A stretch of 64,000 nucleotides of DNA, from the IMG/VR virus record IMGVR_UViG_3300020182_000007. The stretch is one strand, 5' to 3'. Of this stretch, positions 4,331 through 18,103 are shown piece by piece (within the stretch, counting starts at the first letter, position 1; each line of letters begins with the position of its first letter). The notes beneath the pieces are model-generated. The model saw nothing but the letters and a program-made list of their open reading frames with translations, did no database searches and was not told the DNA's origin. This DNA is from a virus. The position numbers were made by a program, and so were the translations under genes.

Positions 4331-4366
4331 ATGGTTATCTATCCATATGATTCTAAGAATGTTATC

Positions 4367-4675
4367 CTAAGCCTTATTTATTTTTTTTGGCTTATTTATT
4401 TTTTGAGATACGCTGCTTGGCGATGCAGTGGTCAGTCCCCATTGAAGAATAAACCAGTTCATCTCTTGATTTGCAGCAGACTTAGTCAGCTTCAGTTTAG
4501 TTTTAATGATGTCAGCTCCCCATTTAATAAATTCAGATTCTTTTTCTGTAGTTGTTTGATACTCCATGTACCAGTCTGGATTATTTTTAACTTCTTCAAA
4601 TTTTACATTGAATGGCTCTAACTGCTTGTTTACGAGTGTTAAAAACACTTCGCTTTCTAAATCTCTTCTACTCAT
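4367..4675 (-). CDS. Hypothetical protein
   Basis: 102-aa ORF tightly packed downstream of clpP. Confidence 0.65.
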   Translation of the reverse strand: MSRRDLESEVFLTLVNKQLEPFNVKFEEVKNNPDWYMEYQTTTEKESEFIKWGADIIKTKLKLTKSAANQEMNWFILQWGLTTASPSSVSQKINKPKKINKA

Positions 4676-4681
4676 TGCTTA

Positions 4682-5359
4682 TTATCTTTTTTTAATTATT
4701 TCATCAATAATACCGTACTCGACTGCCTGTTCAGCGCTAAGCCAGAAATCTCTAGTAGCGTCATTCATAACTACGTCTGCTGGTTTTCCGCAATATTCTC
4801 CTAGAAGTACAAAAAGTTCGCGGTTTACTTCTTTCCAATTTTTCCAATCAATTTCAGCGTCTTGTATATTACCACTGAATCCTCCAGAAGATTGATGTAG
4901 CATTGTTGTTGAGTGTTTTAGTGACATCCTCTTACCTTTAGTTCCAGCGCCTAATAATACTGAACCCATTGAGGCGGCCATTCCAGTATTAATGGTTCTA
5001 ATATCAGCTTTAATGTAGTCCATTACATCTACCATAGATAGTCCTGACTTAACTGAGCCTCCTGGAGAATCAATATGCATTGTAATATCATCAGATGATG
5101 TGGTATCTAAAAACATCAGCTGTGCTTGTACTACAGTTGACATTTGATCATTTACTGGACCAGCAACCCACAGTAATCTGTCCATCATTAATCTACTAAA
5201 AATATCCATTTGAGTAGCTCTTAATTCTCTCTCTTCTAGGATATAAGGTGTCATCGATCCTTGTATATGCTTCGAATACATGTCTATTTTTGAGGATCCA
5301 ATGTTAAGTTCACTCTGTGCAAACCTGTTAAATTCTTTATCTTTTGGGAAATAATTCAT
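4682..5359 (-). CDS. clpP: ATP-dependent Clp protease proteolytic subunit
   Basis: DIFSRLMMDR, HIDSPGGSV, GMAASMGS (Ser), MLHQ (His), RDFWLSAEQAVEYGIID (Asp). Confidence 0.97.
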   Translation of the reverse strand: MNYFPKDKEFNRFAQSELNIGSSKIDMYSKHIQGSMTPYILEERELRATQMDIFSRLMMDRLLWVAGPVNDQMSTVVQAQLMFLDTTSSDDITMHIDSPGGSVKSGLSMVDVMDYIKADIRTINTGMAASMGSVLLGAGTKGKRMSLKHSTTMLHQSSGGFSGNIQDAEIDWKNWKEVNRELFVLLGEYCGKPADVVMNDATRDFWLSAEQAVEYGIIDEIIKKR

Positions 5360-5676
5360 ATGTTTTTTAAAATTTGCTTTATTAAATCGCAGGTTTCGTA
5401 TTCTTCTATTTGTTTAAAGTATTCCATTGACTTATTAAGAGACTTAGAAAATCCTTGAGGAGGAAGGCACATTTCATATTCTATTCCTTCATCGTCTATT
5501 AATATAACTAGTATTTCGGTTACTGGCATATCTTCAATGTATGCTAGAGTGTATTCGACTATTCTTCGGTAGAAAACATCATATTTTGCCATTAAATTTA
5601 GATCTAGATCTGCCTTTGAAATTTTTAGTGGATCTATTCTAATTATTGGTATATTATCTTCAGTATATTCTTCCAT
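5356..5676 (-). CDS. Small acidic protein with C-terminal UVR-like helical motif
   Basis: C-terminal EYFKQIEEYETCDLIKQI resembles the UvrB/C motif; overlaps clpP start. Confidence 0.5.
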   Translation of the reverse strand: MEEYTEDNIPIIRIDPLKISKADLDLNLMAKYDVFYRRIVEYTLAYIEDMPVTEILVILIDDEGIEYEMCLPPQGFSKSLNKSMEYFKQIEEYETCDLIKQILKNI

Positions 5677-5677
5677 C

Positions 5678-6517
5678 TTATATTTCGAAATAATCGTTTA
5701 ATATATTCTTGTAATTTGCGTCCTTCATCTTAATTGAATTATCAACTCTTTGCAAAAATTCTAATCCCTGGTCAGTTAGATATACTCCATTATCACTATT
5801 ATAATCTAGTAATTTGTTTTTTAGTATTAATGAGTATTCGCTTCCGATTCCATTTTCTTTAATTTCTGATGCTAGATTAAAATGTCTTTCATAAAAATGT
5901 AGGTTATCTGAATTATGGAAATAGTGACCAAGTTCAAGGTCTTTATATTTATCTTTTAGTATTAAAAAAATAGATTGATGAAGGAATGAAAAGAATGGTG
6001 CATCAAATGTAAGTCCAAAGAATATATCATTTGATCTCATCTGAACCTTCATATATAGCGTATTATTTCTAATAAAAAAGTTTGCGTATAGAGTACATAC
6101 AAAATCTTTATTTCCTTCTACTTGAAATTTAGGCTGATTAAAAAACATAATTGCCTGTCTTGAATTCTTATCATTTACTAAAGAATCAACAACCCATCCA
6201 ACTTGCTTATCGTTAAGTACTAAACTTCCATAATTAGAATTAATTTCATTAGTTCCTTCATTTGTTAAGTTTTTCCAAAATTTAGAAAAGTTAGAAATGT
6301 AATCAACATCATTATCTCTGTGGAGATACCATGCAAGCTCTCCTGTAAAATATTTAAAGTTAAATGGACGGTCTTTAAAATCTGCAATTGGATGCGTTGG
6401 ATCTATATCAAAAGAAGCCATCATTGCTTCTTTTACTTTCATATCTCTTGGAGAAGATTCAGTACCGTTGTCTTCGATCTCATTGACTAAATCTATAAAT
6501 GTTTGTGAAAAACTCAT
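5678..6517 (-). CDS. Thymidylate-synthase-family pyrimidine modifying enzyme, dCMP hydroxymethylase-like
   Basis: PRD, ELAWY, NSNYG, SRQA, catalytic DFVCT, MRSNDIFFGLTFD (Asp where ThyA has Asn), NLHFYERH. Confidence 0.85.
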   Translation of the reverse strand: MSFSQTFIDLVNEIEDNGTESSPRDMKVKEAMMASFDIDPTHPIADFKDRPFNFKYFTGELAWYLHRDNDVDYISNFSKFWKNLTNEGTNEINSNYGSLVLNDKQVGWVVDSLVNDKNSRQAIMFFNQPKFQVEGNKDFVCTLYANFFIRNNTLYMKVQMRSNDIFFGLTFDAPFFSFLHQSIFLILKDKYKDLELGHYFHNSDNLHFYERHFNLASEIKENGIGSEYSLILKNKLLDYNSDNGVYLTDQGLEFLQRVDNSIKMKDANYKNILNDYFEI

Positions 6518-6539
6518 ATTATATTATTTTAATATTATA

Positions 6540-8555
6540 TTAGGATTTAAGGTTTAGTTTATTATCTGACTTAAGTTTACTAAGAGTATACGCATCTTCT
6601 CTTGGAGTAATTTCTTCAGTTAATATTAGGTCTGCAATTAGGTCCTCTACATATTTTTGAATTGCTCTTTTTACAGGTCGAGCACCGTATGCCTTGTCGT
6701 ATCCTTCATTTGCTATAAACTCTTTGGCGCTTTTCATGAATTTAAAATTATATCCTTCTTCTATCATTCTTTCGTTAAATGTTGACAACTCAATGTCTAC
6801 TATCTTAATTACATTTTCGATCGTTAGGTGATCAAATAGAATAATATCGTCTAGTCTGTTTAAAAATTCAGGACTAAATTTATTCTTTAATTCTTTCTTA
6901 ATTATACCTTCAATCTTAGCGCTTTGTTGTAGCAATATACTATCGCTTTGAAATCCTACTCCTGTTCCAAAGTCTGCTACCTTACGAGCACCTATATTTG
7001 AAGTCATTACAATAATTGTATTTGTAAAATCAACAATCCTTCCACTAGAATCCGTTAATCTACCATCATCTAAAACTTGCAACAATGTGTTAAATACATC
7101 AGGATGTGCCTTTTCAACCTCATCGAATAGAATCACAGAGTGCGGCTTTCTACGAACTGCCTCTGTTAATTGTCCACCATCTTCATGTCCTACGTATCCT
7201 GGAGGAGAACCAATTAGACGAGAAACATTAAACTTTTCTTGGTATTCTGACATATCTATTCTAACCATAGCGTCAGTATCCCCAAACATATATTCAGCAA
7301 GTGCCTTAACGGTCTCAGTTTTACCTACACCAGTAGGACCCAAGAACATAAATGAACCTACTGGCTTTTTATGACTGCTTACTCCTGTTCGAGATCTCTT
7401 AATTACAGTAGAAAGAGCATCAACCGCAGCGTCTTGTCCTATAATTTGTTTTTTTATCTCCTTAGCCATAGATATGATGAGTTTCTTTTCATCAAGGCCT
7501 AGTCGCTGTACTGGAATTCCAGTTTGCATAGAAATAGTTTCTGCAATATCTTCAACATCTACCTTTCTCTTTGTTTTTTTAAGAGAATCTTCCCACTTTT
7601 CAGTTTCAACTATTACCTTGTCATCGATTACAAGCTGCTCATCGCGCAGCTGTGCTGCTAATTCATAATCTTGTCCGGATACTGCTGATTCTTTTTTTAA
7701 TCTTACAATTTCAGCATCTCTTTCAAGGTTTTTAATTTTTGCAGGTATTTTAACTTCTAGCAAATGAGTTCTTGCACCAGATTCGTCTAATAGATCAATT
7801 GCTTTATCTGGCAATTCTCTAGATTTAATATATCGCTCGCTCATTTTTACGCATGCTATTATTGCATCGTCAGTATATTCAACTGAGTGGTGTTCTTCAT
7901 ACTGTCCTTTAATTCTATTAAGAATCTCAATAGTATCATCAACCGAAGGAGGATCCACGAAAACTTCTTGAAATCTACGAGTTAGTGCACCATCGTCTTC
8001 GATGTTTTCTCTATATTCATCTAGTGTCGTTGCTCCAATACATTGTACTTGGCCTCTTGCTAATGCTGGTTTTAAAATGTTAGAAGCGTCTAATGCACCA
8101 CTTACACCGCCTGCTCCTACTATTGTATGTAACTCATCGATGAATACGATAATGTTTTTAGCAGATTTGAGTTCATCTACAATGCTTTTCATTCTCTCTT
8201 CAAATTCGCCACGATATTTTGTACCTGCGACTATATTTGTCATGCTGATAGAAATTACTCTTTTGTTTAGTAGCACTCTTGCAACTTTTTTACTGACAAT
8301 TCGCTGTGCAATCGCTTCAACAATTGCAGTTTTACCTACACCAGGATCTCCTAATATAATAGGATTATTCTTTTTCCTACGAGCAAGAATCTGACAAATT
8401 CTATAGATCTCTTTATCTCTACCAATAATAGGGTCTAATTTACCGTCTGCTGCTAATTTAGTCATATCTTCACCATACTCATCTAAGAATGGCGTATTAG
8501 TCTTGGTCTTTTTATTTCGGCCCTTTTCATTTTCGTATCCGTCTGCTAATGACAT
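6540..8555 (-). CDS. clpC: ClpC-like AAA+ chaperone lacking the N-terminal Clp repeat domain
   Basis: Two Walker A motifs (GDPGVGKT, GPTGVGKT), FIDELH, UVR-like middle coil, LFDEVEKAH, VGF ClpP-docking loop, GARPVKR. Confidence 0.93.
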   Translation of the reverse strand: MSLADGYENEKGRNKKTKTNTPFLDEYGEDMTKLAADGKLDPIIGRDKEIYRICQILARRKKNNPIILGDPGVGKTAIVEAIAQRIVSKKVARVLLNKRVISISMTNIVAGTKYRGEFEERMKSIVDELKSAKNIIVFIDELHTIVGAGGVSGALDASNILKPALARGQVQCIGATTLDEYRENIEDDGALTRRFQEVFVDPPSVDDTIEILNRIKGQYEEHHSVEYTDDAIIACVKMSERYIKSRELPDKAIDLLDESGARTHLLEVKIPAKIKNLERDAEIVRLKKESAVSGQDYELAAQLRDEQLVIDDKVIVETEKWEDSLKKTKRKVDVEDIAETISMQTGIPVQRLGLDEKKLIISMAKEIKKQIIGQDAAVDALSTVIKRSRTGVSSHKKPVGSFMFLGPTGVGKTETVKALAEYMFGDTDAMVRIDMSEYQEKFNVSRLIGSPPGYVGHEDGGQLTEAVRRKPHSVILFDEVEKAHPDVFNTLLQVLDDGRLTDSSGRIVDFTNTIIVMTSNIGARKVADFGTGVGFQSDSILLQQSAKIEGIIKKELKNKFSPEFLNRLDDIILFDHLTIENVIKIVDIELSTFNERMIEEGYNFKFMKSAKEFIANEGYDKAYGARPVKRAIQKYVEDLIADLILTEEITPREDAYTLSKLKSDNKLNLKS

Positions 8556-9796: not shown

Positions 9797-10477
9797 TTAA
9801 AAGTTTGTTTTAGGTCCTAAATAATCGGGGTTCGTCATATATTTGTTATGGTATTCCATTAATTTATCTCTTGCTTCTTCTGCGCTGTCTACTATTCTAA
9901 ATAAATCAAAATCTTCTGGACTCATTTTATTATTTTTTAGAACAGTGCCTCTTAGCCAATCTATTAAACCACTCCAGTATTCTTTACCTACAAGAACTAT
10001 TGGATATTTTATGTTATGCCCACATTGCGCTAATGTTATCGCTTCAAATGTTTCATCTAATGTTCCAACTCCTCCTGGAAATACTACGAATGCCTGTGAG
10101 TATTTTAAGAACATAACCTTTCTTGTAAAAAAGTATCTACATTCAATACCAAGATCTACGTACTTATTCATACCTGCCTCGAACGGTAATTCTATACCGA
10201 TACCGATAGATTTACCACTAACTTCATGCGCTCCATGATTTGCGGCTGCCATAATGCCTGGACCACCCCCTGTAATAACTCCAAAACCTTCACATGCAAT
10301 TAGCTTGCCAAATTCACGTGCTTCATTATACCATTTGCTTCCTTGTTTAGTTCTTGCAGAACCGAATACTGAAATACAAGGTCCTAATTCGCTAAATGTA
10401 TCGAACCCTTTTGTAAATTCTCCTTGAATTCTCATAATCTGCCATGCATCTTCTGCTTTATCTCTCTTCTCTTTCAT
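9797..10477 (-). CDS. LOG family nucleotide phosphoribohydrolase (TIGR00730-type)
   Basis: VFGSAR, ITGGGPGIMAA, FFTRKVMF, FPGGVGTLDE. Confidence 0.92.
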   Translation of the reverse strand: MKEKRDKAEDAWQIMRIQGEFTKGFDTFSELGPCISVFGSARTKQGSKWYNEAREFGKLIACEGFGVITGGGPGIMAAANHGAHEVSGKSIGIGIELPFEAGMNKYVDLGIECRYFFTRKVMFLKYSQAFVVFPGGVGTLDETFEAITLAQCGHNIKYPIVLVGKEYWSGLIDWLRGTVLKNNKMSPEDFDLFRIVDSAEEARDKLMEYHNKYMTNPDYLGPKTNF

Positions 10478-10531: not shown

Positions 10532-11503
10532 TTAATTTGATAGAGGCGCTTTAATACTTGGATGATATTTATAATCCTTTACTTCAATATCGAATTCACC
10601 ACCTAATAAATCTACGTTACTAAATTCAACTGTTGGTAAATCATACATTTCCCTAGTTAATTGTTCTCTTGCTTGTTCAATATGATTCTTATATAAGTGA
10701 ACATCACCTAAGTTTCCAATTAATTGATCTGGAACCATATTAACCTCTTCTGCTATTAAACAAAGAAGTGCTGCATAGCTTGCAATATTAAACGGAAGTC
10801 CGAGAAATAAATCGCAACTTCTTTGGTTCCACATTAAAGAGATTGCTCTGTATTTTCCAGGATTTACAATCTTTTCTTCTCTAGTAGTTAATCGTGTATA
10901 AACTTGGAATCCATAGTGACATGGTGGAAGTGTCATTTGATCTAACTCACCAACATTCCAAGCATTGACCATAAGTCTACGTGAATCTGGATTTGTTTTA
11001 AGTTCATTGATTAGGTTTGCGATTTGATCATGTCCAGGATTCATTATATTATTTTCACCTGTGATTTTATTATAAGAACTTCTAGAACCCCATTCTCTCC
11101 ATTGTTTACCATAGATAGGACCTAACTCACCCCAATTTTTAGCGAATGATTCATCTTCTTTAATATGCTCTACGAATTCCTCTTGGGTAAACATATCATC
11201 TTGATATTCAGAGGGGTGTGCTTTACAGTATTTCTTATAAGCATCGCCATTCCAGATGTTACACCCATTATCAACAAGATATTTAATGTTAGTATCACCT
11301 CTTAGAAACCATTTTAACTCCACTAACATTGTCTTAACCGCCATCCTCTTGGTAGTTAGCAGAGGAAATCCATCCTTCATGTTGTGTCTGATCTGGCGAC
11401 CGAATACTGATAGTGTTCCAGTTCCAGTGCGATCTGATTTTTCTGTTGAGTTTTCTAATAGGGTTCCAAGTAACGCTCGGTATTGTTCTTCTATTCTATT
11501 CAT
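10532..11503 (-). CDS. thyA: Thymidylate synthase
   Basis: DRTGTGT, FPLLTTK, LGPIYGKQWR, SRR, LPPCH, QRSCDLFLGLPFN, GDVHLYKNH. Confidence 0.98.
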   Translation of the reverse strand: MNRIEEQYRALLGTLLENSTEKSDRTGTGTLSVFGRQIRHNMKDGFPLLTTKRMAVKTMLVELKWFLRGDTNIKYLVDNGCNIWNGDAYKKYCKAHPSEYQDDMFTQEEFVEHIKEDESFAKNWGELGPIYGKQWREWGSRSSYNKITGENNIMNPGHDQIANLINELKTNPDSRRLMVNAWNVGELDQMTLPPCHYGFQVYTRLTTREEKIVNPGKYRAISLMWNQRSCDLFLGLPFNIASYAALLCLIAEEVNMVPDQLIGNLGDVHLYKNHIEQAREQLTREMYDLPTVEFSNVDLLGGEFDIEVKDYKYHPSIKAPLSN

Positions 11504-12029: not shown

Positions 12030-12350
12030 CTATTTAATAAAGGGGTTATGTAATATTCGGTATGATTCGTGCCCTGCTTTTGTTTTTGCGGGCTCGATCC
12101 ATCCTAGTTCTAATAGTTTCTGTATTGATTGCTTTGCGTTTTCGACATTTCCGCATGAATGATAATTAAAAAAACCTAACTGTCCGAACGTGTCTTTTTG
12201 GCGGTCTGGTCTCTTAATTGCTTCATTAATAATTACCCATAGCACATCAAAATGATCAGGATATGTTGGAAGCTCTTCTTGTATATTTAGAACATATTTA
12301 AGGCGCACCATATCCTGGTCTATTCTACGTAAATCTTTATCTGCTAGCAT
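12030..12350 (-). CDS. Hypothetical protein, possible winged-helix
   Basis: 106 aa; C-terminal KLLELGWIE...YRIL pattern resembles a wHTH wing. Confidence 0.5.
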   Translation of the reverse strand: MLADKDLRRIDQDMVRLKYVLNIQEELPTYPDHFDVLWVIINEAIKRPDRQKDTFGQLGFFNYHSCGNVENAKQSIQKLLELGWIEPAKTKAGHESYRILHNPFIK

Positions 12351-12817
12351 TAGTAGCCTCTTTTTTGGCGGTTTTTATTCTCTTCCGCTTTAGCAAAATA
12401 GTAATTATAAGCGGTCTTTGCGTCAAGTCCAATAGATGCAGCGTAATTAATAAAAAAGTGTAGAATATCTACCCATTCCATATATAATTCTTTTTTGTCT
12501 CCTTCAGACATATCAGAAATTTTCATAGTCTCAAATTTAGAAAAGTCTTTTTTCCAATATTTCCATACTGCGTTTCCACTACCGTCTTTGATACCTCCAA
12601 GTGCATCCGTCATCTCGTGTATCTCATCTACTACAGCATGTGTGTTAACATGCCAGAAATTCATGATGTCCCTGATTGACATCTCTTCAAAATTAAAACC
12701 GTAAGTTTTTTCTTGCATCTCTTTCTGATGAGTCATTATATCATCTAGATGAGTCGTTGACTGATCATAAAAGTCTTGTACTTCTAGATCTTTACATTCG
12801 TTATCTATATTTGCCAT
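12350..12817 (-). CDS. Dimeric all-alpha dUTPase/dCTPase
   Basis: VDEIHEMTD, W-K-Y-W-K, ELYMEWVDILHF, YFAKAEENKNRQ motifs. Confidence 0.85.
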   Translation of the reverse strand: MANIDNECKDLEVQDFYDQSTTHLDDIMTHQKEMQEKTYGFNFEEMSIRDIMNFWHVNTHAVVDEIHEMTDALGGIKDGSGNAVWKYWKKDFSKFETMKISDMSEGDKKELYMEWVDILHFFINYAASIGLDAKTAYNYYFAKAEENKNRQKRGY

Positions 12818-12842
12818 ATTATTGTGTTACTTTATTATTGTA

Positions 12843-13253
12843 TTATAAATTTACAAATTGTTTCGTATATTTGCTAATATAATTTTTAATTCTTTCGCTT
12901 CCATACGGATTCATAGAGTGTACTAGTATTTTTGGAAAGGCTCCACCCTTTAATATGTGATGTCCTACTAGCCATTTTGCACAATCTAATCCGGTCTTTT
13001 CATTAAATGTTTCTGGAAAATCTTCACTAGAACCACATGCACACATTATTTCGTAATGTTCATCGACTAGATCATGTGCGAATGAAACTACTTTAGGAAT
13101 TCCGTTATTTTCTACAAATTTTACAAATTCCCTAAAATCCTTTACAATTTCCCATTCTAAATTACAATAAATGTTTGCATCATTACCAATCCTAAGGAGC
13201 ATATTATTTAATACGTCCTTAGGTAATTTAGAATCATCTAAAAATAAGTTCAT
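12843..13253 (-). CDS. Cyclic-phosphate-processing receiver-like domain protein
   Basis: LFLDD, SFAHDL, TGLDCAKWL, VHSMNPYG. Confidence 0.75.
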   Translation of the reverse strand: MNLFLDDSKLPKDVLNNMLLRIGNDANIYCNLEWEIVKDFREFVKFVENNGIPKVVSFAHDLVDEHYEIMCACGSSEDFPETFNEKTGLDCAKWLVGHHILKGGAFPKILVHSMNPYGSERIKNYISKYTKQFVNL

Positions 13254-14305
13254 TAGAACAAACTACCCTGTGAGAAGTTATTGTTAAAAAAATATTGCAT
13301 TATGTTTTCATCAACCCTAGCAACTTTTCGTTTGTTAATTAAATTAGAATTGTTACTTAGTCTAGTATAAACTCCAAACTGACATAGACCAACTTCGCAT
13401 CCATATGTTTTGAGCTCGTTCTGATCATCAGCAAATATCTTCACTCCATTAACCACCTTATTCCATTCATTTTCGTTAAGTGGAATTTCTCCAATAAGAT
13501 CTTTATAGTTTTCTCTAAACCAAATTACTCTATCACCATGTGGTACTTTACAACCCTCTCCAAACATCATGTCTAGCGCCATTCTAGCACCAGGTCCAGG
13601 TACACAGAATCTTTCGTCATGGTTTATTGATATATTTGGGTTAACTGAATTAGAAGTTGAGCAATGATATCCATAATAGGATCCTACTCCTTCAATTGTT
13701 GTTAATATATCGAACATTTCCGATAAAGAGTTAACGCCAGCCATTCGTCTAGTAATTCCTCTAGGTATAAATCCAGCAACCCAAAGTAATATGTTAATCT
13801 TATCTGCATTACGTTCAGTTTGTCTGGTTTCAGAAACCCAAGTATTTGAAGCTCCATATAGGCTGGTTCTAAGTTCAGTTGTTCCGTATACTCCAAGTCC
13901 TAGTGATATTGCGTCATCAATATTCTTTCTGATTTCAGTTTCGTATTCCTTGTCTTTTAAAAGTCTTTCAAAATCTACTAGAGCTGTTTTTGGATCTGAG
14001 TTTCTTGTTAGAATCTGGTGAATTCCTCTAGCTCCATAAAAGTGGGATATTATCGTGTTGCAAATAATATTATTCATCGACATATCAGATAACACGATAT
14101 TATCCATAATATATCTCATACGATCATCATATAATATATGAGGATGAAAATACTCTACAGTTTCTCCAAGAGCTGCATCACCTTCACTGTCATATGAATC
14201 TCTATATCCATAATTTAATTCAGATCTCTCATTAACTTTGTTAAAAAAATAACCTATTCGATCGACAACCTCCATGTTAACAAGAGCTCTCATATTATCT
14301 GCCAT
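13253..14305 (-). CDS. aGPT-pyrophosphorylase / 5-hmdU DNA kinase helical-domain-like DNA modification enzyme
   Basis: DDRMRYI, HhH-like TIEGVGSYYGYH, PGPGARMALD, CEVGLCQF..Y pattern of the family. Confidence 0.7.
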   Translation of the reverse strand: MADNMRALVNMEVVDRIGYFFNKVNERSELNYGYRDSYDSEGDAALGETVEYFHPHILYDDRMRYIMDNIVLSDMSMNNIICNTIISHFYGARGIHQILTRNSDPKTALVDFERLLKDKEYETEIRKNIDDAISLGLGVYGTTELRTSLYGASNTWVSETRQTERNADKINILLWVAGFIPRGITRRMAGVNSLSEMFDILTTIEGVGSYYGYHCSTSNSVNPNISINHDERFCVPGPGARMALDMMFGEGCKVPHGDRVIWFRENYKDLIGEIPLNENEWNKVVNGVKIFADDQNELKTYGCEVGLCQFGVYTRLSNNSNLINKRKVARVDENIMQYFFNNNFSQGSLF

Positions 14306-14319
14306 ATTATATTAATATT

Positions 14320-14988
14320 TTAATCTATAAATAGACAATCATATCCTCCAACTTTTTGAAATATAATGATCTCTTCTATGTTTGATGTTTTATAAGCTTC
14401 GGTAAACCTCTGTACTGCAGACTTTGCTTGATCATGGTTTCCATGTAGTTCAATAAACAATATACTTGGTTTATATTCGAGCACGCTTTCTATTATATCA
14501 TACTCTGCTCCTTCGATGTCAATTTTAATAATATCTGGCTTAATCTCTTCTAACAGATGGTCAATATGGTAATTTTTAACGTCGTCATATTCATTAAAGG
14601 TACCTCTTCTTTTAATAATAGATGTTGAGCTATGGTTACTTTTAGCGTTTGATTTGTATATTTTAAGAGTATCTTCTGTAGATCCAGATACTGCAGCATG
14701 AATTATATTAGCATGAATCGAAGCTGCAAAATTATTAGCAGCTATGTTGTAGTTTCTAAAGTCGCATTCGATACCATACACTCTCTTTGCTCCTCCTTCT
14801 ATTGCTATTTTAGTAAAAGCTCCTATATTAGTACCTAGATCTAAACATACTTTATTTAGATAATCTACTTCTGGCTTGATGTAGTTTTTAATTGATTCTG
14901 AAATCATATCTTTATCTACACTTTCCTGTGCATTTAATTCTTTAACATATCTCTTTTTTAAGATTGATCTTTGTTTTGGGTCTAGCAT
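14320..14988 (-). CDS. FkbM family SAM-dependent methyltransferase
   Basis: LDLGTNIGAF, GIEC, HAAVS, IKIDIEGAEY, FIELH. Confidence 0.9.
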   Translation of the reverse strand: MLDPKQRSILKKRYVKELNAQESVDKDMISESIKNYIKPEVDYLNKVCLDLGTNIGAFTKIAIEGGAKRVYGIECDFRNYNIAANNFAASIHANIIHAAVSGSTEDTLKIYKSNAKSNHSSTSIIKRRGTFNEYDDVKNYHIDHLLEEIKPDIIKIDIEGAEYDIIESVLEYKPSILFIELHGNHDQAKSAVQRFTEAYKTSNIEEIIIFQKVGGYDCLFID

Positions 14989-14995
14989 TCTTATT

Positions 14996-15364
14996 TTATT
15001 TTTGTACTAAGTTTGATACTACATGTACCACGTCTAGGTTTGGATGATTCTCTTCAATAATCGCCTTTTGTACAGGGTCGTCTTCAAAAAATCTAACAAC
15101 GTTAATGCCCTGTTCGGCTAATTCACTTATAGTTTTAGCTTTATGTTTTCCTGAGTATGTTCTAGCATTGACAGTATGGTCTCCTCTTTCTGCTAGTGTC
15201 ATTTGGTTAAAATAAACTTTAGTAGTAACCCCCATCTCTGATAATTTATCAAAAACGTAAGGCGCCTCTTCTTGACATCTTCCTGTAATAATGATATCAT
15301 CACTCCATCGAGGGGTAATTCCGATTGAAACTACACCATCAAAATCGTATGCAAATATATCCAT
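14996..15364 (-). CDS. Capless HAD-superfamily phosphatase
   Basis: YDFDGV motif I, ITGR motif II, K, FFEDD motif IV. Confidence 0.8.
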   Translation of the reverse strand: MDIFAYDFDGVVSIGITPRWSDDIIITGRCQEEAPYVFDKLSEMGVTTKVYFNQMTLAERGDHTVNARTYSGKHKAKTISELAEQGINVVRFFEDDPVQKAIIEENHPNLDVVHVVSNLVQK

Positions 15365-15394
15365 TTTTTATTATTATATTATTATGATCTATAA

Positions 15395-15416
15395 AAGGGA
15401 GTCCGAAGACTCCCTT
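15395..15416 (-). terminator. UUCG-loop terminator after ino1
   Basis: aagggagtc-cgaa-gactccctt; loop reads TTCG on the minus strand, T-run follows. Confidence 0.8.
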
Positions 15417-15435
15417 AACAACTATAAATAAAGGT

Positions 15436-16614
15436 TTATTTGAGTTGCTTTTTAGTTACATTGGTTAATTCACGAACTGCTAATGCGTCGCATTCTTTAA
15501 CAGCATCCCTAAACATCATTTGTTGAGGTGGTGTTTTTTGAGTAAATGCAGATGGTCCACGAAGAGCTCCTACTATTCCCATTTCACGAGCTACTTTTAC
15601 GTATCGCAAAGCATCAATTACAACACCTGCTGAGTTTGGAGAATCTTGAACACTTAATTGAGCATCAAGTAATACAGGTGCTCCTCCAAATCCTTCCATT
15701 TCAAGTCTAAAGTTTGCTACTTTATTATCTCCATAAAATGAAATATATTCAGATGGCCCAGCATGTAAGAAAGAATCCTCTGTAGAGATTCCACGAATTT
15801 CATTTTGAGCACGAATTACGTTTTCTTTAGAAATCTTCTTAGAAGCTAATCTTGTTTTGTCTTCCATGTTTAAGAAATCTGTGTTACCTCCAACATTACG
15901 CTGAATGTGTGCTTTAACATGGTGTCCTCTTTCAAAAGCTAGCTCCTGTAGCATTTGAGAAAGAATCGATGCTCCAAACTGCGAGCGCATATCATCTCCA
16001 ATAATTGGAATACCAGCATCAATAAATCTCTGTTCCCATGCTGGGTCAGAAGCAATAAATACTGGAATACAGTTTACAAAGGAAATTCCAGTTTCTAGGC
16101 AGATTTCAGCCCAAAATTCAGTAGTTTTTTGAGAACCTACAGGTAAGTAGTTTATTAATACCTCTACTTCAAGTTCTTTTAATTTCGCAATGATTGAATC
16201 TTTCCAAGATCTCTCTAATTTAGAGGTCCATGAAACTCTACCCATATCAGTTGAATTTCTTAATTCTTCAGATATTAAAAATCTATTTGATTCTGGGTAA
16301 CGGTCCATTAGTTGTGCATATCCATCAATTACAGGACCTTCAAATACAGGTGCTGTTGATTTAATATCTTCAACAATATTCCAAGAACAGTTAGGTTTTT
16401 GCTTTAGTGCTTCGCCTAATGGCAGATTAACCTTTCTCTCATCGATATCAAATCCAACTACGAATTCGATATCTTCTGCAGTATAACCTCCAATATCGAA
16501 TTTCATCATACCGGTGGTTGCTTCTTTGTTTTCAGTATAGTACTGAACTCCTTCTACTAGGGACTTGGCGCAATTTCCTGTTCCAATGATCCCAACTTTA
16601 ATTTTTTGCTTCAT
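15436..16614 (-). CDS. ino1: myo-Inositol-1-phosphate synthase
   Basis: GIIGTGNCAKSLVEG, INYLPVGS, FVNCIPVFIA, GDDMRSQFGA, NVGGNTDF, KKISK, GDNK, DSPNSAG. Confidence 0.96.
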   Translation of the reverse strand: MKQKIKVGIIGTGNCAKSLVEGVQYYTENKEATTGMMKFDIGGYTAEDIEFVVGFDIDERKVNLPLGEALKQKPNCSWNIVEDIKSTAPVFEGPVIDGYAQLMDRYPESNRFLISEELRNSTDMGRVSWTSKLERSWKDSIIAKLKELEVEVLINYLPVGSQKTTEFWAEICLETGISFVNCIPVFIASDPAWEQRFIDAGIPIIGDDMRSQFGASILSQMLQELAFERGHHVKAHIQRNVGGNTDFLNMEDKTRLASKKISKENVIRAQNEIRGISTEDSFLHAGPSEYISFYGDNKVANFRLEMEGFGGAPVLLDAQLSVQDSPNSAGVVIDALRYVKVAREMGIVGALRGPSAFTQKTPPQQMMFRDAVKECDALAVRELTNVTKKQLK

Positions 16615-16733
16615 TTTAAACCTTTATTTTTTGTTTATAATAGTTATACAACACAGTTTAAAAAAGTTTCAAGATATTAAAAAATATTTTCACTTTAGGT
16701 GTGCTGAGTGATATATATACAGTTTGGTGGGGG

Positions 16734-17771
16734 CTAAAACAGGCTGGCTGTCTTTTGAATGAGGTTCGAGTTTTTATTTCCAGTATTCCAATCCCAATAA
16801 TAGAATTCTCTACTTAGATGTACCGAACCAGGCTTTTCCATATAGTTTTTTGCAAAAGATTCTGGGTTTTCAGAATACCAATGATCAGGCCATCCTAATA
16901 TTGTAAATCCTGCAGATTCTCCTAAATCCTGTATAGTTCTGTTAAATATTTTAACTAGGTTTGCTCTTTCTTCTCTTGTTCCAAAGAATGGAGCTTTTTT
17001 ATACCATCCTGTTTTAGGAATTCTTCTACCTTCAAATTCTATAGGTAATAATTTATGCACAGTTATATTAGGAACATCTAGAGATTTAAGATGGTCTATA
17101 TAGTCCATTGCAATTCTGCGGATAGACATTACTGGATCAGCTTGCCTGCACATATGATGTCGAACGTCGATATTGCCAAAATAGGATATCAAATGGGTTG
17201 TTCCTTCTGGTATATATGTACTAAATCCTTCTTTTAACGCGCCAAATAATGTTTTTCCGTCGTTTCTACTAATATCAGATCCTAATGGCATTACCGATAC
17301 TGAGTGACTGTCTCCTAATACAAAAGTTCCTGTATCTGTTTTTAGGTTTATTGTTTTTAGGTTTTTACATTTCTCGCTGATTGCTAAATCGTCAAGAGCT
17401 TTCCAATTTTCAGTACAGCTCTTTGATCTGCTTCTCACGAACTCGCCAACATCTGGCATTTCTCTATTCAAACAAAATATATCGCCATTGAAATCTAAGA
17501 ATCTAGCAATTCTGGCAGCTGGTTCGTCTCCAGCTCCTCCAAATAGATTATAAGTTCCTTGAAACTCCATTGGCATCGCAATTAACCATACATCATAATC
17601 ATGTATATTTCCGGATTTATCTAAGACATCAACGTCTAATCCATGATGTTTCAATTGAGCCTGTAGAAGATAAGACCACGCACTCTTATGTGATGCCTTT
17701 TTTTGGCTGTATGTTGTGACTACATCATCAATTGCTATTTTCTTACCTTTAAGATCTTGGATATTTTTCAT
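16734..17771 (-). CDS. Conserved phage protein (GDSH / YFGNIDVRHH), candidate DNA-modifying transferase
   Basis: SHKSAW, YNLFGG, VLGDSHS, SRNDGKTL, YFGNIDVRHH, SVHL; function inferred from neighbourhood only. Confidence 0.6.
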   Translation of the reverse strand: MKNIQDLKGKKIAIDDVVTTYSQKKASHKSAWSYLLQAQLKHHGLDVDVLDKSGNIHDYDVWLIAMPMEFQGTYNLFGGAGDEPAARIARFLDFNGDIFCLNREMPDVGEFVRSRSKSCTENWKALDDLAISEKCKNLKTINLKTDTGTFVLGDSHSVSVMPLGSDISRNDGKTLFGALKEGFSTYIPEGTTHLISYFGNIDVRHHMCRQADPVMSIRRIAMDYIDHLKSLDVPNITVHKLLPIEFEGRRIPKTGWYKKAPFFGTREERANLVKIFNRTIQDLGESAGFTILGWPDHWYSENPESFAKNYMEKPGSVHLSREFYYWDWNTGNKNSNLIQKTASLF

Positions 17772-17785
17772 AATGCACTAATAAG

Positions 17786-18103
17786 TTATAGTCCGTTTTC
17801 CCAGTTTTCTAAACCTTGAATATATGCGACAGCATCTAATAGATTATCACGTTTATGATTGTAACTCTCACGTGAGAATTTAAGTGCTACTAGCGCCTTA
17901 AACATGTCACCACCAGAAACATCGTGCCCAGTCATGCCATTAAAAATCATTGCTGCACGCTCCATACCCTCTGAGAATGGACCATAGTTACGATCTGCCT
18001 CTTCACTGCGGTTATTTACAATTTGATCTGCTTCGTTAAGAATACTCATTTTTTTATTATTAGTTATTATATTATTATAGATAGATTGAACGAATTGTTT
18101 CAT
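17786..18103 (-). CDS. DUF6378 family protein (true start probably MSILNEA)
   Basis: ILNEA...R...YGPF, ALKFSRESYNHKRDNLLDAVAY. Confidence 0.8.
   Translation of the reverse strand: MKQFVQSIYNNIITNNKKMSILNEADQIVNNRSEEADRNYGPFSEGMERAAMIFNGMTGHDVSGGDMFKALVALKFSRESYNHKRDNLLDAVAYIQGLENWENGL

Follow-up and report, generated by a model that had tools for sequence, protein, structure and literature searches.

A candidate cytosine hypermodification cassette with a putative phage-encoded inositol supply in a metagenomic T4-like virus

Why should a virus carry a gene for myo-inositol-1-phosphate synthase (MIPS, the Ino1 family) among its genes for nucleotide metabolism? The question is raised by a stretch of 64,000 nt (the window) from the 148,784-bp virus record IMGVR_UViG_3300020182_000007, in which the MIPS gene is part of a run of eight closely spaced minus-strand genes. 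A previous reading, made from the letters of the window without database searches (here called the sequence-only reading), had proposed that the phage makes DNA containing 5-hydroxymethylcytosine (5hmC) or 5-hydroxycytosine (5hoC) and decorates it with inositol, methyl-inositol or phospho-inositol. Of this proposal, the link between the cassette and a dCMP hydroxymethylase and the position of ino1 among DNA-modification genes are retained below, while the involvement of a kinase is given up and the 5hoC option is held to be unlikely. The answer that we favor, with a probability of roughly 55%, is that the run is a cytosine hypermodification cassette that appends a cyclitol: 5hmC would replace cytosine and would then be coupled to inositol made by the phage, with O-methylation in those phages that carry an FkbM methyltransferase. 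No description of inositol on DNA, or of a function for phage ino1, was found in full-text literature searches. Recent papers on 5hoC glycosylation (PMC13326640) and on T-dioxygenases do not mention inositol on DNA, and one genome paper lists phage MIPS as a bacteria-like gene (PMC9025141).

Each of the seven gene types named in the sequence-only reading could be located in the run by profile or homology matches or by conserved motifs (Table 1). In the order of transcription, these encode a small DUF6378 protein, a protein with GDSH and YFGNID motifs (g345), MIPS, a small capless HAD phosphatase (g122), an FkbM methyltransferase, a helix-hairpin-helix protein (g350) and, at the end, a dCTPase/dUTPase of the T4 gp56 type. 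The eighth gene, for a cREC_REC protein between the last two, had been overlooked.

That cytosine is the base concerned is indicated by enzymes of nucleotide metabolism in and near the run. A second thymidylate synthase (TS) homologue with a dCMP-type Asp had been reported some 6 kb away, and it was indeed identified 5.8 kb from the run. Its best PDB match is the T4 dCMP hydroxymethylase (1B49/1B5E, 1.4e-17). The alignment to 1B49 pairs DFVCT with DFMCT and MRSNDIFFGLTFD with MRSNDVVFGFRND. In the motif D-F-V-C, an acidic residue stands three positions before the catalytic Cys, where E. coli has L143, and in MRSND...F-D the residue D169 is kept while N177 (the D179 position in T4) is replaced by Asp. 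All four features of the T4 gp42 type, i.e. the Cys, the acidic residue, D169 and Asp at N177, were found in this protein and likewise in all cassette-linked homologues. These features derive from work on 5hoC synthases, which have Asn at the E. coli D169 position (PMC13326640), and the dUMP-type enzyme of phage M6 has, unlike the cassette-linked homologues, Asn at the N177 position. By its residues, the second TS homologue carries the signature of a 5hmdCMP synthase, and neither that of a 5-hydroxy-dCMP enzyme nor that of a dUMP enzyme. A 5hoC route was rejected, since D169 is retained and the best solved match is the T4 dCMP hydroxymethylase. In two other sublineages the TS homologue directly adjoins the cassette, with gaps of 3-96 bp.

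The 155-aa protein at the end of the run had tblastn matches in 1423 phage records, mostly T4-like and annotated as gene 56 or dCTP pyrophosphatase, at 30-41% identity. No significant match was found for it among solved structures in a sequence search. Beside the cassette, this gp56-type dCTPase is conserved at 79-93%. A canonical ThyA is also encoded in the window, which indicates that T is still made.

The supply of the appended group is attributed to MIPS and the HAD protein. MIPS scored 82.3 bits against PF01658, for which the cut-off is 27, and the N-terminal NAD-binding GxGxxA region is present. The best solved match is Ino1 of M. tuberculosis (1GR0, 1.1e-81), about 57% identical over the catalytic half; the alignment to this structure covers residues 4-101 and 140-367 and includes the NAD-binding and catalytic motifs GxGNCA, NVGGN.DFLNM, SKKISK and DSPNSAG. 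The curated equivalog model of bacterial Ino1, TIGR03450, gave 299 bits, below its cut-off of 638, and the second-best solved relative is a synthase of a five-membered cyclitol phosphate (6K96, 3e-44). Judged by these comparisons, the phage MIPS is a divergent but clear member of the Ino1 family, not a mycothiol-type orthologue, with the predicted reaction from glucose-6-phosphate to inositol-3-phosphate. In g122, the residues of the four HAD motifs (D7, D9, T27, K75, D95 and D96) do not vary among 23 sequences, one of them from phage Cr30, and no match was found in Pfam or among PDB sequences. We propose that g122 is an inositol-phosphate phosphatase, acting on the free or on the DNA-bound form. 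The HAD protein is paired with MIPS in every phage lineage examined, and directly follows it in Cr30, Moby, RP13 and the metagenomic contig L154.

MIPS is 82-91% identical across more than 100 IMG/VR contigs and is under unusually strong purifying selection; in the same loci, the identity of g345, HAD and g350 drops to 37%, 38% and 26%, respectively. As a rough estimate, a genome of about 300 kb with 33% G+C holds about 1e5 cytosines, and a burst of about 100 would require about 1e7 inositol molecules, i.e. a millimolar concentration in a cell volume of about 1 fL. Such a demand could explain a dedicated and strongly conserved MIPS.

The surroundings of MIPS were counted in those IMG/VR loci that had enough flanking DNA for the gene in question. 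By this count, g345 (100/100), HAD (103/103) and g350 (75/75) are constant neighbors and DUF6378 is nearly so (75/77), while FkbM (65/90), the gp56-like gene (49/62) and cREC_REC (14/69) are variable. Neighbor identity in these loci ranges from 26% to 90%. The arrangement is not due to chance, because the order recurs in about 100 loci even where neighbor identities drop to 26-40%. Gene fusions connect the same proteins. ORF233c of Aeromonas phage 44RR2.8t (795 aa) is made up of a g345 part and, behind it, a g350 part (hhalign probability 100, E 1e-49), and P0144, a 981-aa protein from a metagenomic contig, joins FkbM, HMUDK_hel and g345. The contig of the latter (L154, 5.7 kb) has MIPS, HAD, the fusion, a thymidylate-kinase-like (dNMP kinase) gene and a dCMP-type TS.

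Other loci have g345 without MIPS. Three of these (L103, L104 and L106) contain DUF6378, g345 and a TS homologue, while in others (L120, 9187-11290; L114, 9174-12295) DUF6378 and g345 are followed either by a 406-aa orphan and a pyridoxal-phosphate enzyme or by a homologue of CitG-like triphosphoribosyl-transferase, and then by the gp56 gene. The pyridoxal-phosphate enzyme belongs to a "threonine dehydratase" PHROG, an annotation shared by M6 gp52, and the 406-aa protein had no significant match among solved structures in a sequence search. These versions of the cassette suggest that other adducts are made. A constant front end with variable supply and tailoring genes would resemble the clusters for thymidine hypermodification, and in such a modular logic MIPS and HAD are read as the supply module. 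Taken together, the gene content supports the view that the cassette functions as a conserved unit and is linked with a dCMP hydroxymethylase.

Which protein would act on the DNA? The best candidate is g350, which matches PF18723 (HMUDK_hel, the former aGPT-Pplase clade 1) at 52.1 bits, with a cut-off of 25; M6 gp55 and RP13 ORF120 match the same model. The sequence-only reading had labeled this protein as aGPT-PPase or 5-hmdU-DNA-kinase-like, a label that does not hold. The true kinase of M6, gp54, matches PF18748, and the verified M6 glycine:DNA transferase gp51 matches PF18724, while g350 belongs with the helical family of gp55. With neither a P-loop nor a kinase-domain match in g350, its identity as a DNA kinase was rejected; the protein has instead a DNA-glycosylase-like fold with the Glu and Cys of the amino-acid:DNA transferase (AADT) superfamily. 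In the AlphaFold2 (AF2) model (pLDDT 91.5), the closest solved structure is 8z2m, the PaMx11 glycinyltransferase acting on 5-phosphomethyldeoxyuridine (5-PmdU), with Z 9.6 and a root-mean-square deviation (rmsd) of 4.5 over 226 residues, followed by queuine-salvage DUF2419 proteins and then by helix-hairpin-helix DNA glycosylases. Residues E304, C308 and Q309 are invariant in 41 family members. In a joint alignment, the E-x-x-x-C of g350 lines up with that of M6 gp55, RP13 ORF120, the 44RR fusion, M6 gp51 and the AADT of Cr30, an alignment so remote that it is to be read as a resemblance only. In M6 gp51 and ViI gp247 this Cys and Glu are essential, and an attack at C6 leading to an exocyclic C5 methylene has been proposed (PMC8989533). 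Because its fold is nearest to 8z2m and its E-x-x-x-C is invariant and aligned, g350 looks like a DNA-base transferase of the AADT superfamily, a candidate base-flipping enzyme that would use Cys308 and Glu304.

Searches by sequence set g350 apart from its presumed relatives. It had no match to PF18724 at E<=0.01 and no significant match among solved structures, and hhalign of the g350 family against M6 gp51 and against the 406-aa protein of the MIPS-less loci gave no match. No AADT (PF18724) match was found in the phage record or in its relatives. Kinases of the 5-HMUDK type (PF18748/PF18747) were found neither in the cassette nor in this approximately 49%-complete record nor in five relatives (CheckV completeness 46-77%). 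The Aeromonas phages 44RR and 25, whose genomes are complete, have neither family, while the positive controls RP13 and M6 were detected. Since 44RR and 25 lack both known families of 5-hmdU kinases, the pair of g345 and g350 would appear to work without them. A bacterial homologue of g350 (49% identity) occurs alone beside a helix-turn-helix gene and an integrase in Crocinitomix algicola (LYPF02000017, 7599-10212). This island also carries Schlafen/AlbA_2, PLD-helicase and NUDIX genes, and may represent use of the helix-hairpin-helix domain in a mobile or defense island.

The partner of g350, g345, belongs to a large and almost wholly viral family, with 394 cluster representatives and at least 590 IMG/VR contigs; by tblastn, similar proteins were found in Aeromonas, Tenacibaculum and Stenotrophomonas phages only. 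A sequence search returned no significant match among solved structures. The AF2 model, built from a 104-sequence alignment, has a pLDDT of 95.9, and its residues 145-335 form an SGNH/GDSL hydrolase fold (Z 12.7 to 4rsh and 3p94; rmsd 3.0 over 153 residues for 4rsh; Foldseek probability 1.0). Dozens of esterases and acyltransferases of the SGNH type fall within Z 10-12.7, while residues 1-140 have generic flavodoxin/GATase1-like neighbors only (TM 0.45-0.56). Invariant in the 104 sequences are G153, D154, H156, D202, R249, R269 and E312. SGNH block I corresponds to G153-D154-S155-H156, block III reads G-N-I-D (canonical GxND) and block V reads S316-x-H318 (canonical DxxH), with E312 invariant. 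The role of g345 may lie in activating the hydroxymethyl group, in binding the polyol or elsewhere.

Cultured phages offer a further view of both modules. In all of those with a homologous MIPS, a g122 homologue follows immediately. In Caulobacter phage Cr30 (KF301602, 6190-15083), an AADT gene (409 aa, PF18724, 1.3e-52) is situated two genes upstream of MIPS, with a weakly matching TAGT-like glycosyltransferase in between. Further upstream, genes for a MazZ-like PF18909 protein and for a dioxygenase of the Tet/JBP type (PF12851, 8.7e-23) are found, and MIPS and HAD are followed by a P-loop kinase-like gene. The Tet/JBP domain sits inside an open reading frame (ORF) annotated as "SNF2 DNA repair protein", the cluster was previously unannotated, and the sole TS of Cr30 resembles an ordinary ThyA. 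Ralstonia phage RP13 has MIPS and HAD between HMUDK_hel (3e-47) and an HMUD2 5-hmdU DNA kinase (1.4e-13). In Stenotrophomonas phage Moby (NC_048802, 6201-11615), the pair is found between FolE and QueC, a DpdA-like tRNA-guanine transglycosylase and QueE, i.e. genes for 7-deazaguanine modification of DNA; neither PF18723 nor PF18724 was found in this genome. The arrangement may reflect a deazaguanine derivative with linked inositol, or the genes may be neighbors by coincidence. For the sequence-only reading, ino1 homologues beside lipid or glycan genes, rather than DNA-modification genes, in related phages would have spoken against the proposal; in the present clade and in Cr30, RP13 and Moby they occur with DNA-modification genes. 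Among the scanned neighbors of MIPS, no lipid or glycan genes were found except for the weak TAGT-like hit in Cr30, which itself belongs to a DNA-modification family. Genes against CBASS defense were noted within a few kb of two of these clusters, namely Acb1 in RP13 (10640-11230) and Acb3 in Cr30 (2134-2934); counter-defense genes appear to be grouped.

Three Aeromonas phages, namely 44RR, 31 and 25, are T4 relatives with genes 42 and 56 and without a glucosyltransferase (PMC2993671), and all three gave g345 homologues by tblastn. In 44RR (4366-8346), a vSGLT-like Na+/sugar symporter (2xq2, 3.3e-103) lies directly upstream of the 795-aa fusion, which fits a free sugar or polyol as co-substrate; 44RR may thus import the compound that is attached to its DNA.

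From these elements, a pathway in four steps can be outlined. Judging by family membership, the gp42-like enzyme would produce 5hmdCMP and the gp56-like dCTPase would deplete dCTP, so that 5hmC replaces C at replication, while ThyA would keep T normal. On the same grounds, MIPS would convert glucose-6-phosphate to inositol-3-phosphate, and the HAD protein would strip the phosphate, either while the sugar is free or once it is attached to DNA. The fold, residues and fusions then suggest that g350, together with g345, would flip out 5hmC, with Cys308 attacking C6 and Glu304 serving as acid, to give an exocyclic methylene as in amino-acid:DNA transferases. If an inositol hydroxyl then added, the product would be 5-(inosityl-oxymethyl)cytosine with an ether link, comparable to the serine-O-linked intermediate of 5-(2-aminoethoxy)methyldeoxyuridine (5-NeOmdU). 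In this scheme g345 would stand in place of the P-loop 5-hmdU kinase of the thymidine pathways, its probable task being activation of the hydroxymethyl group or delivery of the polyol. Lastly, phages with FkbM would use it to O-methylate one of the adduct's hydroxyls. The modified product would shield the DNA against host nucleases. Extended to the other lineages, this leads to a wider proposal, which we advance tentatively and at somewhat less than even odds: phages would attach myo-inositol, optionally O-methylated, to DNA pyrimidines, which would make this the first adduct of a cyclitol with DNA. In the T4-like aquatic clade, the acceptor would be 5hmC, and the attachment would be carried out without a kinase by a pair of SGNH-like and clade-1 helix-hairpin-helix proteins; MIPS and HAD would have been recruited independently to the AADT and Tet/JBP pathway of Cr30, the HMUD2-kinase pathway of RP13 and the 7-deazaguanine pathway of Moby.

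Several points weigh against the reading of the run as a cyclitol-appending cassette. DNA modification itself is predicted from the genes, and the identity of the adduct (inositol, methyl-inositol or phospho-inositol) as well as its linkage are inferred. The counted loci come mostly from one phage clade and were not de-duplicated, so the counts overstate independence and part of the synteny reflects common descent. MIPS is missing from 20 of the 65 g345 loci that have at least 3 kb on both sides, and because about one third lack it, g345 is not specific to inositol. PF18723 clade 1 lacks a demonstrated activity, and one of its members, M6 gp55, is dispensable for the formation of glycinyl-T in vitro (PMC8989533). 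A kinase that activates the leaving group was not found in this record, whose CheckV completeness is about 49%, in the five partial relatives or in the complete genomes of 44RR and 25. The weakest point is g345, proposed as the catalytic partner of g350 in activation or transfer; this role is a guess, and blocks III and V are non-canonical. Finally, the context in Moby is a guanine pathway, not a pyrimidine one.

Among the other explanations, one grants that the DNA is modified, with a group that is not myo-inositol as such: another cyclitol phosphate, a converted inositol or phospho-inositol, or inositol serving as precursor or cofactor. The relationship of MIPS to 6K96 and its score below the TIGR03450 cut-off would allow this, as would action of the capless HAD on DNA-bound phosphate and the "cyclic-phosphate processing" cREC_REC domain of some cassettes. 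We nevertheless consider it unlikely, as MIPS is far closer to the true Ino1 than to 6K96, MIPS and HAD alone constitute the classical two-step route to free myo-inositol, and family scans of the cassette revealed no cytidylyltransferase or other activating enzyme. Somewhat less probable still is that MIPS and HAD form an auxiliary metabolic module, serving host lipids, glycans, osmoprotection or a drain on glucose-6-phosphate, which merely happens to be placed in a region for nucleotide metabolism. Some Bacteroidota use inositol lipids, and the likely hosts are Bacteroidota-like; in published genome papers, phage MIPS is regarded as a bacterial-like stray (PMC9025141). Such a module is hard to reconcile with the insertion of MIPS between g345 and g350, which are fused in other phages, or with the finding that in this clade MIPS never occurs without these two. 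Three further lineages also have MIPS within about 3 kb of DNA-modification genes, and the scanned neighbors include no lipid genes and, as the sole glycosyltransferase-like one, the weak TAGT-like hit of Cr30.

The least probable of the three is that the substrate differs from 5hmC in polymerized DNA, being instead 5-hydroxymethyluracil (5hmU) or thymine, free nucleotides before incorporation, or RNA or tRNA. The queuine-salvage DUF2419 enzymes, which are the second-best structural matches of g350, act on mononucleotides. RP13 and Cr30 pair MIPS with machinery of the 5hmU type (HMUD2 kinase and Tet/JBP, respectively), and PF18723 and PF18724 are known from thymidine pathways only (PMC8989533). 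The evidence for cytosine is nonetheless consistent within the clade: the canonical ThyA is kept, each cassette-linked copy of the extra TS carries the Asp that specifies dCMP, where the dUMP enzyme of M6 has Asn, a gp56-type dCTPase is adjacent, and the Aeromonas carriers are gene-42 phages (PMC2993671).

The proposed cytosine cassette shares features with several known systems. As in thymidine hypermodification (M6, ViI, PaMx11, SP10 and PhiW-14; PMC8989533, PMC11472151), a hydroxymethylpyrimidine made by a TS homologue would be modified after replication by modular clusters with variable tailoring genes. A helix-hairpin-helix enzyme with conserved Glu and Cys is also common to both, and 5-NeOmdU, formed from a serine hydroxyl, is a precedent for an ether product. 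Unlike in those pathways, the base would be C instead of T; the cassette lacks both a P-loop 5-HMUDK and a PF18724 AADT; its helix-hairpin-helix protein is of PF18723 clade 1 and has an obligate SGNH-like partner; and the nucleophile would be a cyclitol from MIPS and HAD, not an amino acid or polyamine. With the glucosylation of 5hmC in T-even phages and the arabinosyl-5-hydroxycytosine of RB69 and DLP3 (PMC13326640, PMC6024577), it shares the T4-like background, a TS-made modified dCMP, the gp56 dCTPase and a phage-encoded supply of the appended sugar-like group, which in the RB69/DLP3 cluster includes a small HAD phosphatase. It differs from these in having no genes for a glycosyltransferase or for nucleotide-sugar activation, and in a TS with the signature for 5hmC (D169), not 5hoC. 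As inositol has no anomeric carbon, the link would be an ether or a phosphodiester, not a glycoside.

Also close is the system of 44RR2.8t, whose ORF233c, with homologues in 31 and 25, contains direct homologues of g345 and g350 in a genome with genes 42 and 56 and no glucosyltransferase. Unlike the present phage, 44RR has neither MIPS nor HAD but a vSGLT-like symporter, and its appended group may be imported and may differ. Cr30 and RP13 share the homologous pair of MIPS and HAD (43-50% identity) among DNA hypermodification genes; in contrast to the cassette, its partners there are AADT and Tet/JBP (Cr30) or HMUDK_hel and the HMUD2 kinase (RP13), neither phage has g345, and the base is likely T/5hmU.

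Table 1. Genes of the cassette and of the region downstream of it, with their positions in the window and the matches on which the assignments are based.
Feature	Position	Strand	Length (aa)	Matches and remarks
DUF6378 small protein	17786-18103	-	105	PF19905, 9.9e-10; first in transcription order
g345 (GDSH/YFGNID protein)	16734-17771	-	345	phrog_13881, 7.6e-61; no Pfam match
MIPS (Ino1 family)	15436-16614	-	392	PF01658, 3.5e-23, 82.3 bits
g122, small capless HAD phosphatase	14996-15364	-	122	four HAD motifs; no Pfam match
FkbM methyltransferase	14320-14988	-	222	PF05050, 3.2e-18; TIGR01444, 1e-17
g350, HMUDK_hel helix-hairpin-helix protein	13253-14305	-	350	PF18723, 7.9e-14
cREC_REC protein	12843-13253	-	136	PF20274, 1.4e-15
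T4 gp56-type dCTPase/dUTPase (all-alpha NTP pyrophosphatase)	12350-12817	-	155	phrog_173, phrog_18650
Eight-gene run	12350-18103	-		
Canonical ThyA	10532-11503	-		PF00303, 310.8 bits; motifs LPPCH, QRSCD...PFN
LOG/SLOG-cluster-4 protein	9797-10477	-		PF03641, 3.1e-32
T4 gp42-type dCMP hydroxymethylase (second TS homologue)	5678-6517	-		1B49/1B5E, 1.4e-17

The remaining proteins of the run are DUF6378, FkbM and cREC_REC. DUF6378 is always directly upstream of g345, also in the loci without MIPS. Its true start is probably the internal Met19 (around 18049), because "MSIL" stands at the start of most homologues, and conservation does not reach into the N-terminal extension. An assignment as a MazG/MazZ-like pyrophosphatase, considered for its E-E...K..R...D...D...Y pattern, found no support, since hhalign against the PF18909 protein of Cr30 gave nothing and the Atlas gave DUF6378 clusters only; a sequence search found no significant match among solved structures. 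FkbM is an optional tailoring enzyme, with a proposed O-methylation of the adduct, and cREC_REC is an accessory protein that a minority of relatives share. Continuing downstream, the same strand encodes ThyA, the LOG/SLOG protein, an M42 peptidase, ClpC, the second TS homologue and ClpP. The LOG/SLOG gene, situated between those for the M42 peptidase and ThyA, is syntenic in several relatives (69-86% identity) and may encode an enzyme that processes nucleotides as part of this metabolic block.

Hypermodification decides whether phage DNA resists restriction enzymes, CRISPR and other nucleases, and has been a source of enzymes for epigenetic sequencing and DNA labeling. So far, sugars, amino acids, polyamines and small carbamoyl or acetyl groups are known to be appended. 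If true, a cyclitol ether would add a new chemical class to these, formed by a new enzyme pairing; being isobaric with hexosyl-5hmC, such an ether might be taken for glucosylation when mass spectra are read. It would also provide a first function for PF18723, for the viral SGNH-like family and for the phage ino1 genes that have been annotated as stray bacterial ones. Carriers are available in culture, namely Cr30 (host Caulobacter crescentus CB15), RP13, Stenotrophomonas phages of the genus Menderavirus and the Aeromonas phages. For the last of these, the cassette could explain what replaces glucosylation in 44RR, 31 and 25, which have gene 42 and no glucosyltransferase, a question that has long been open.

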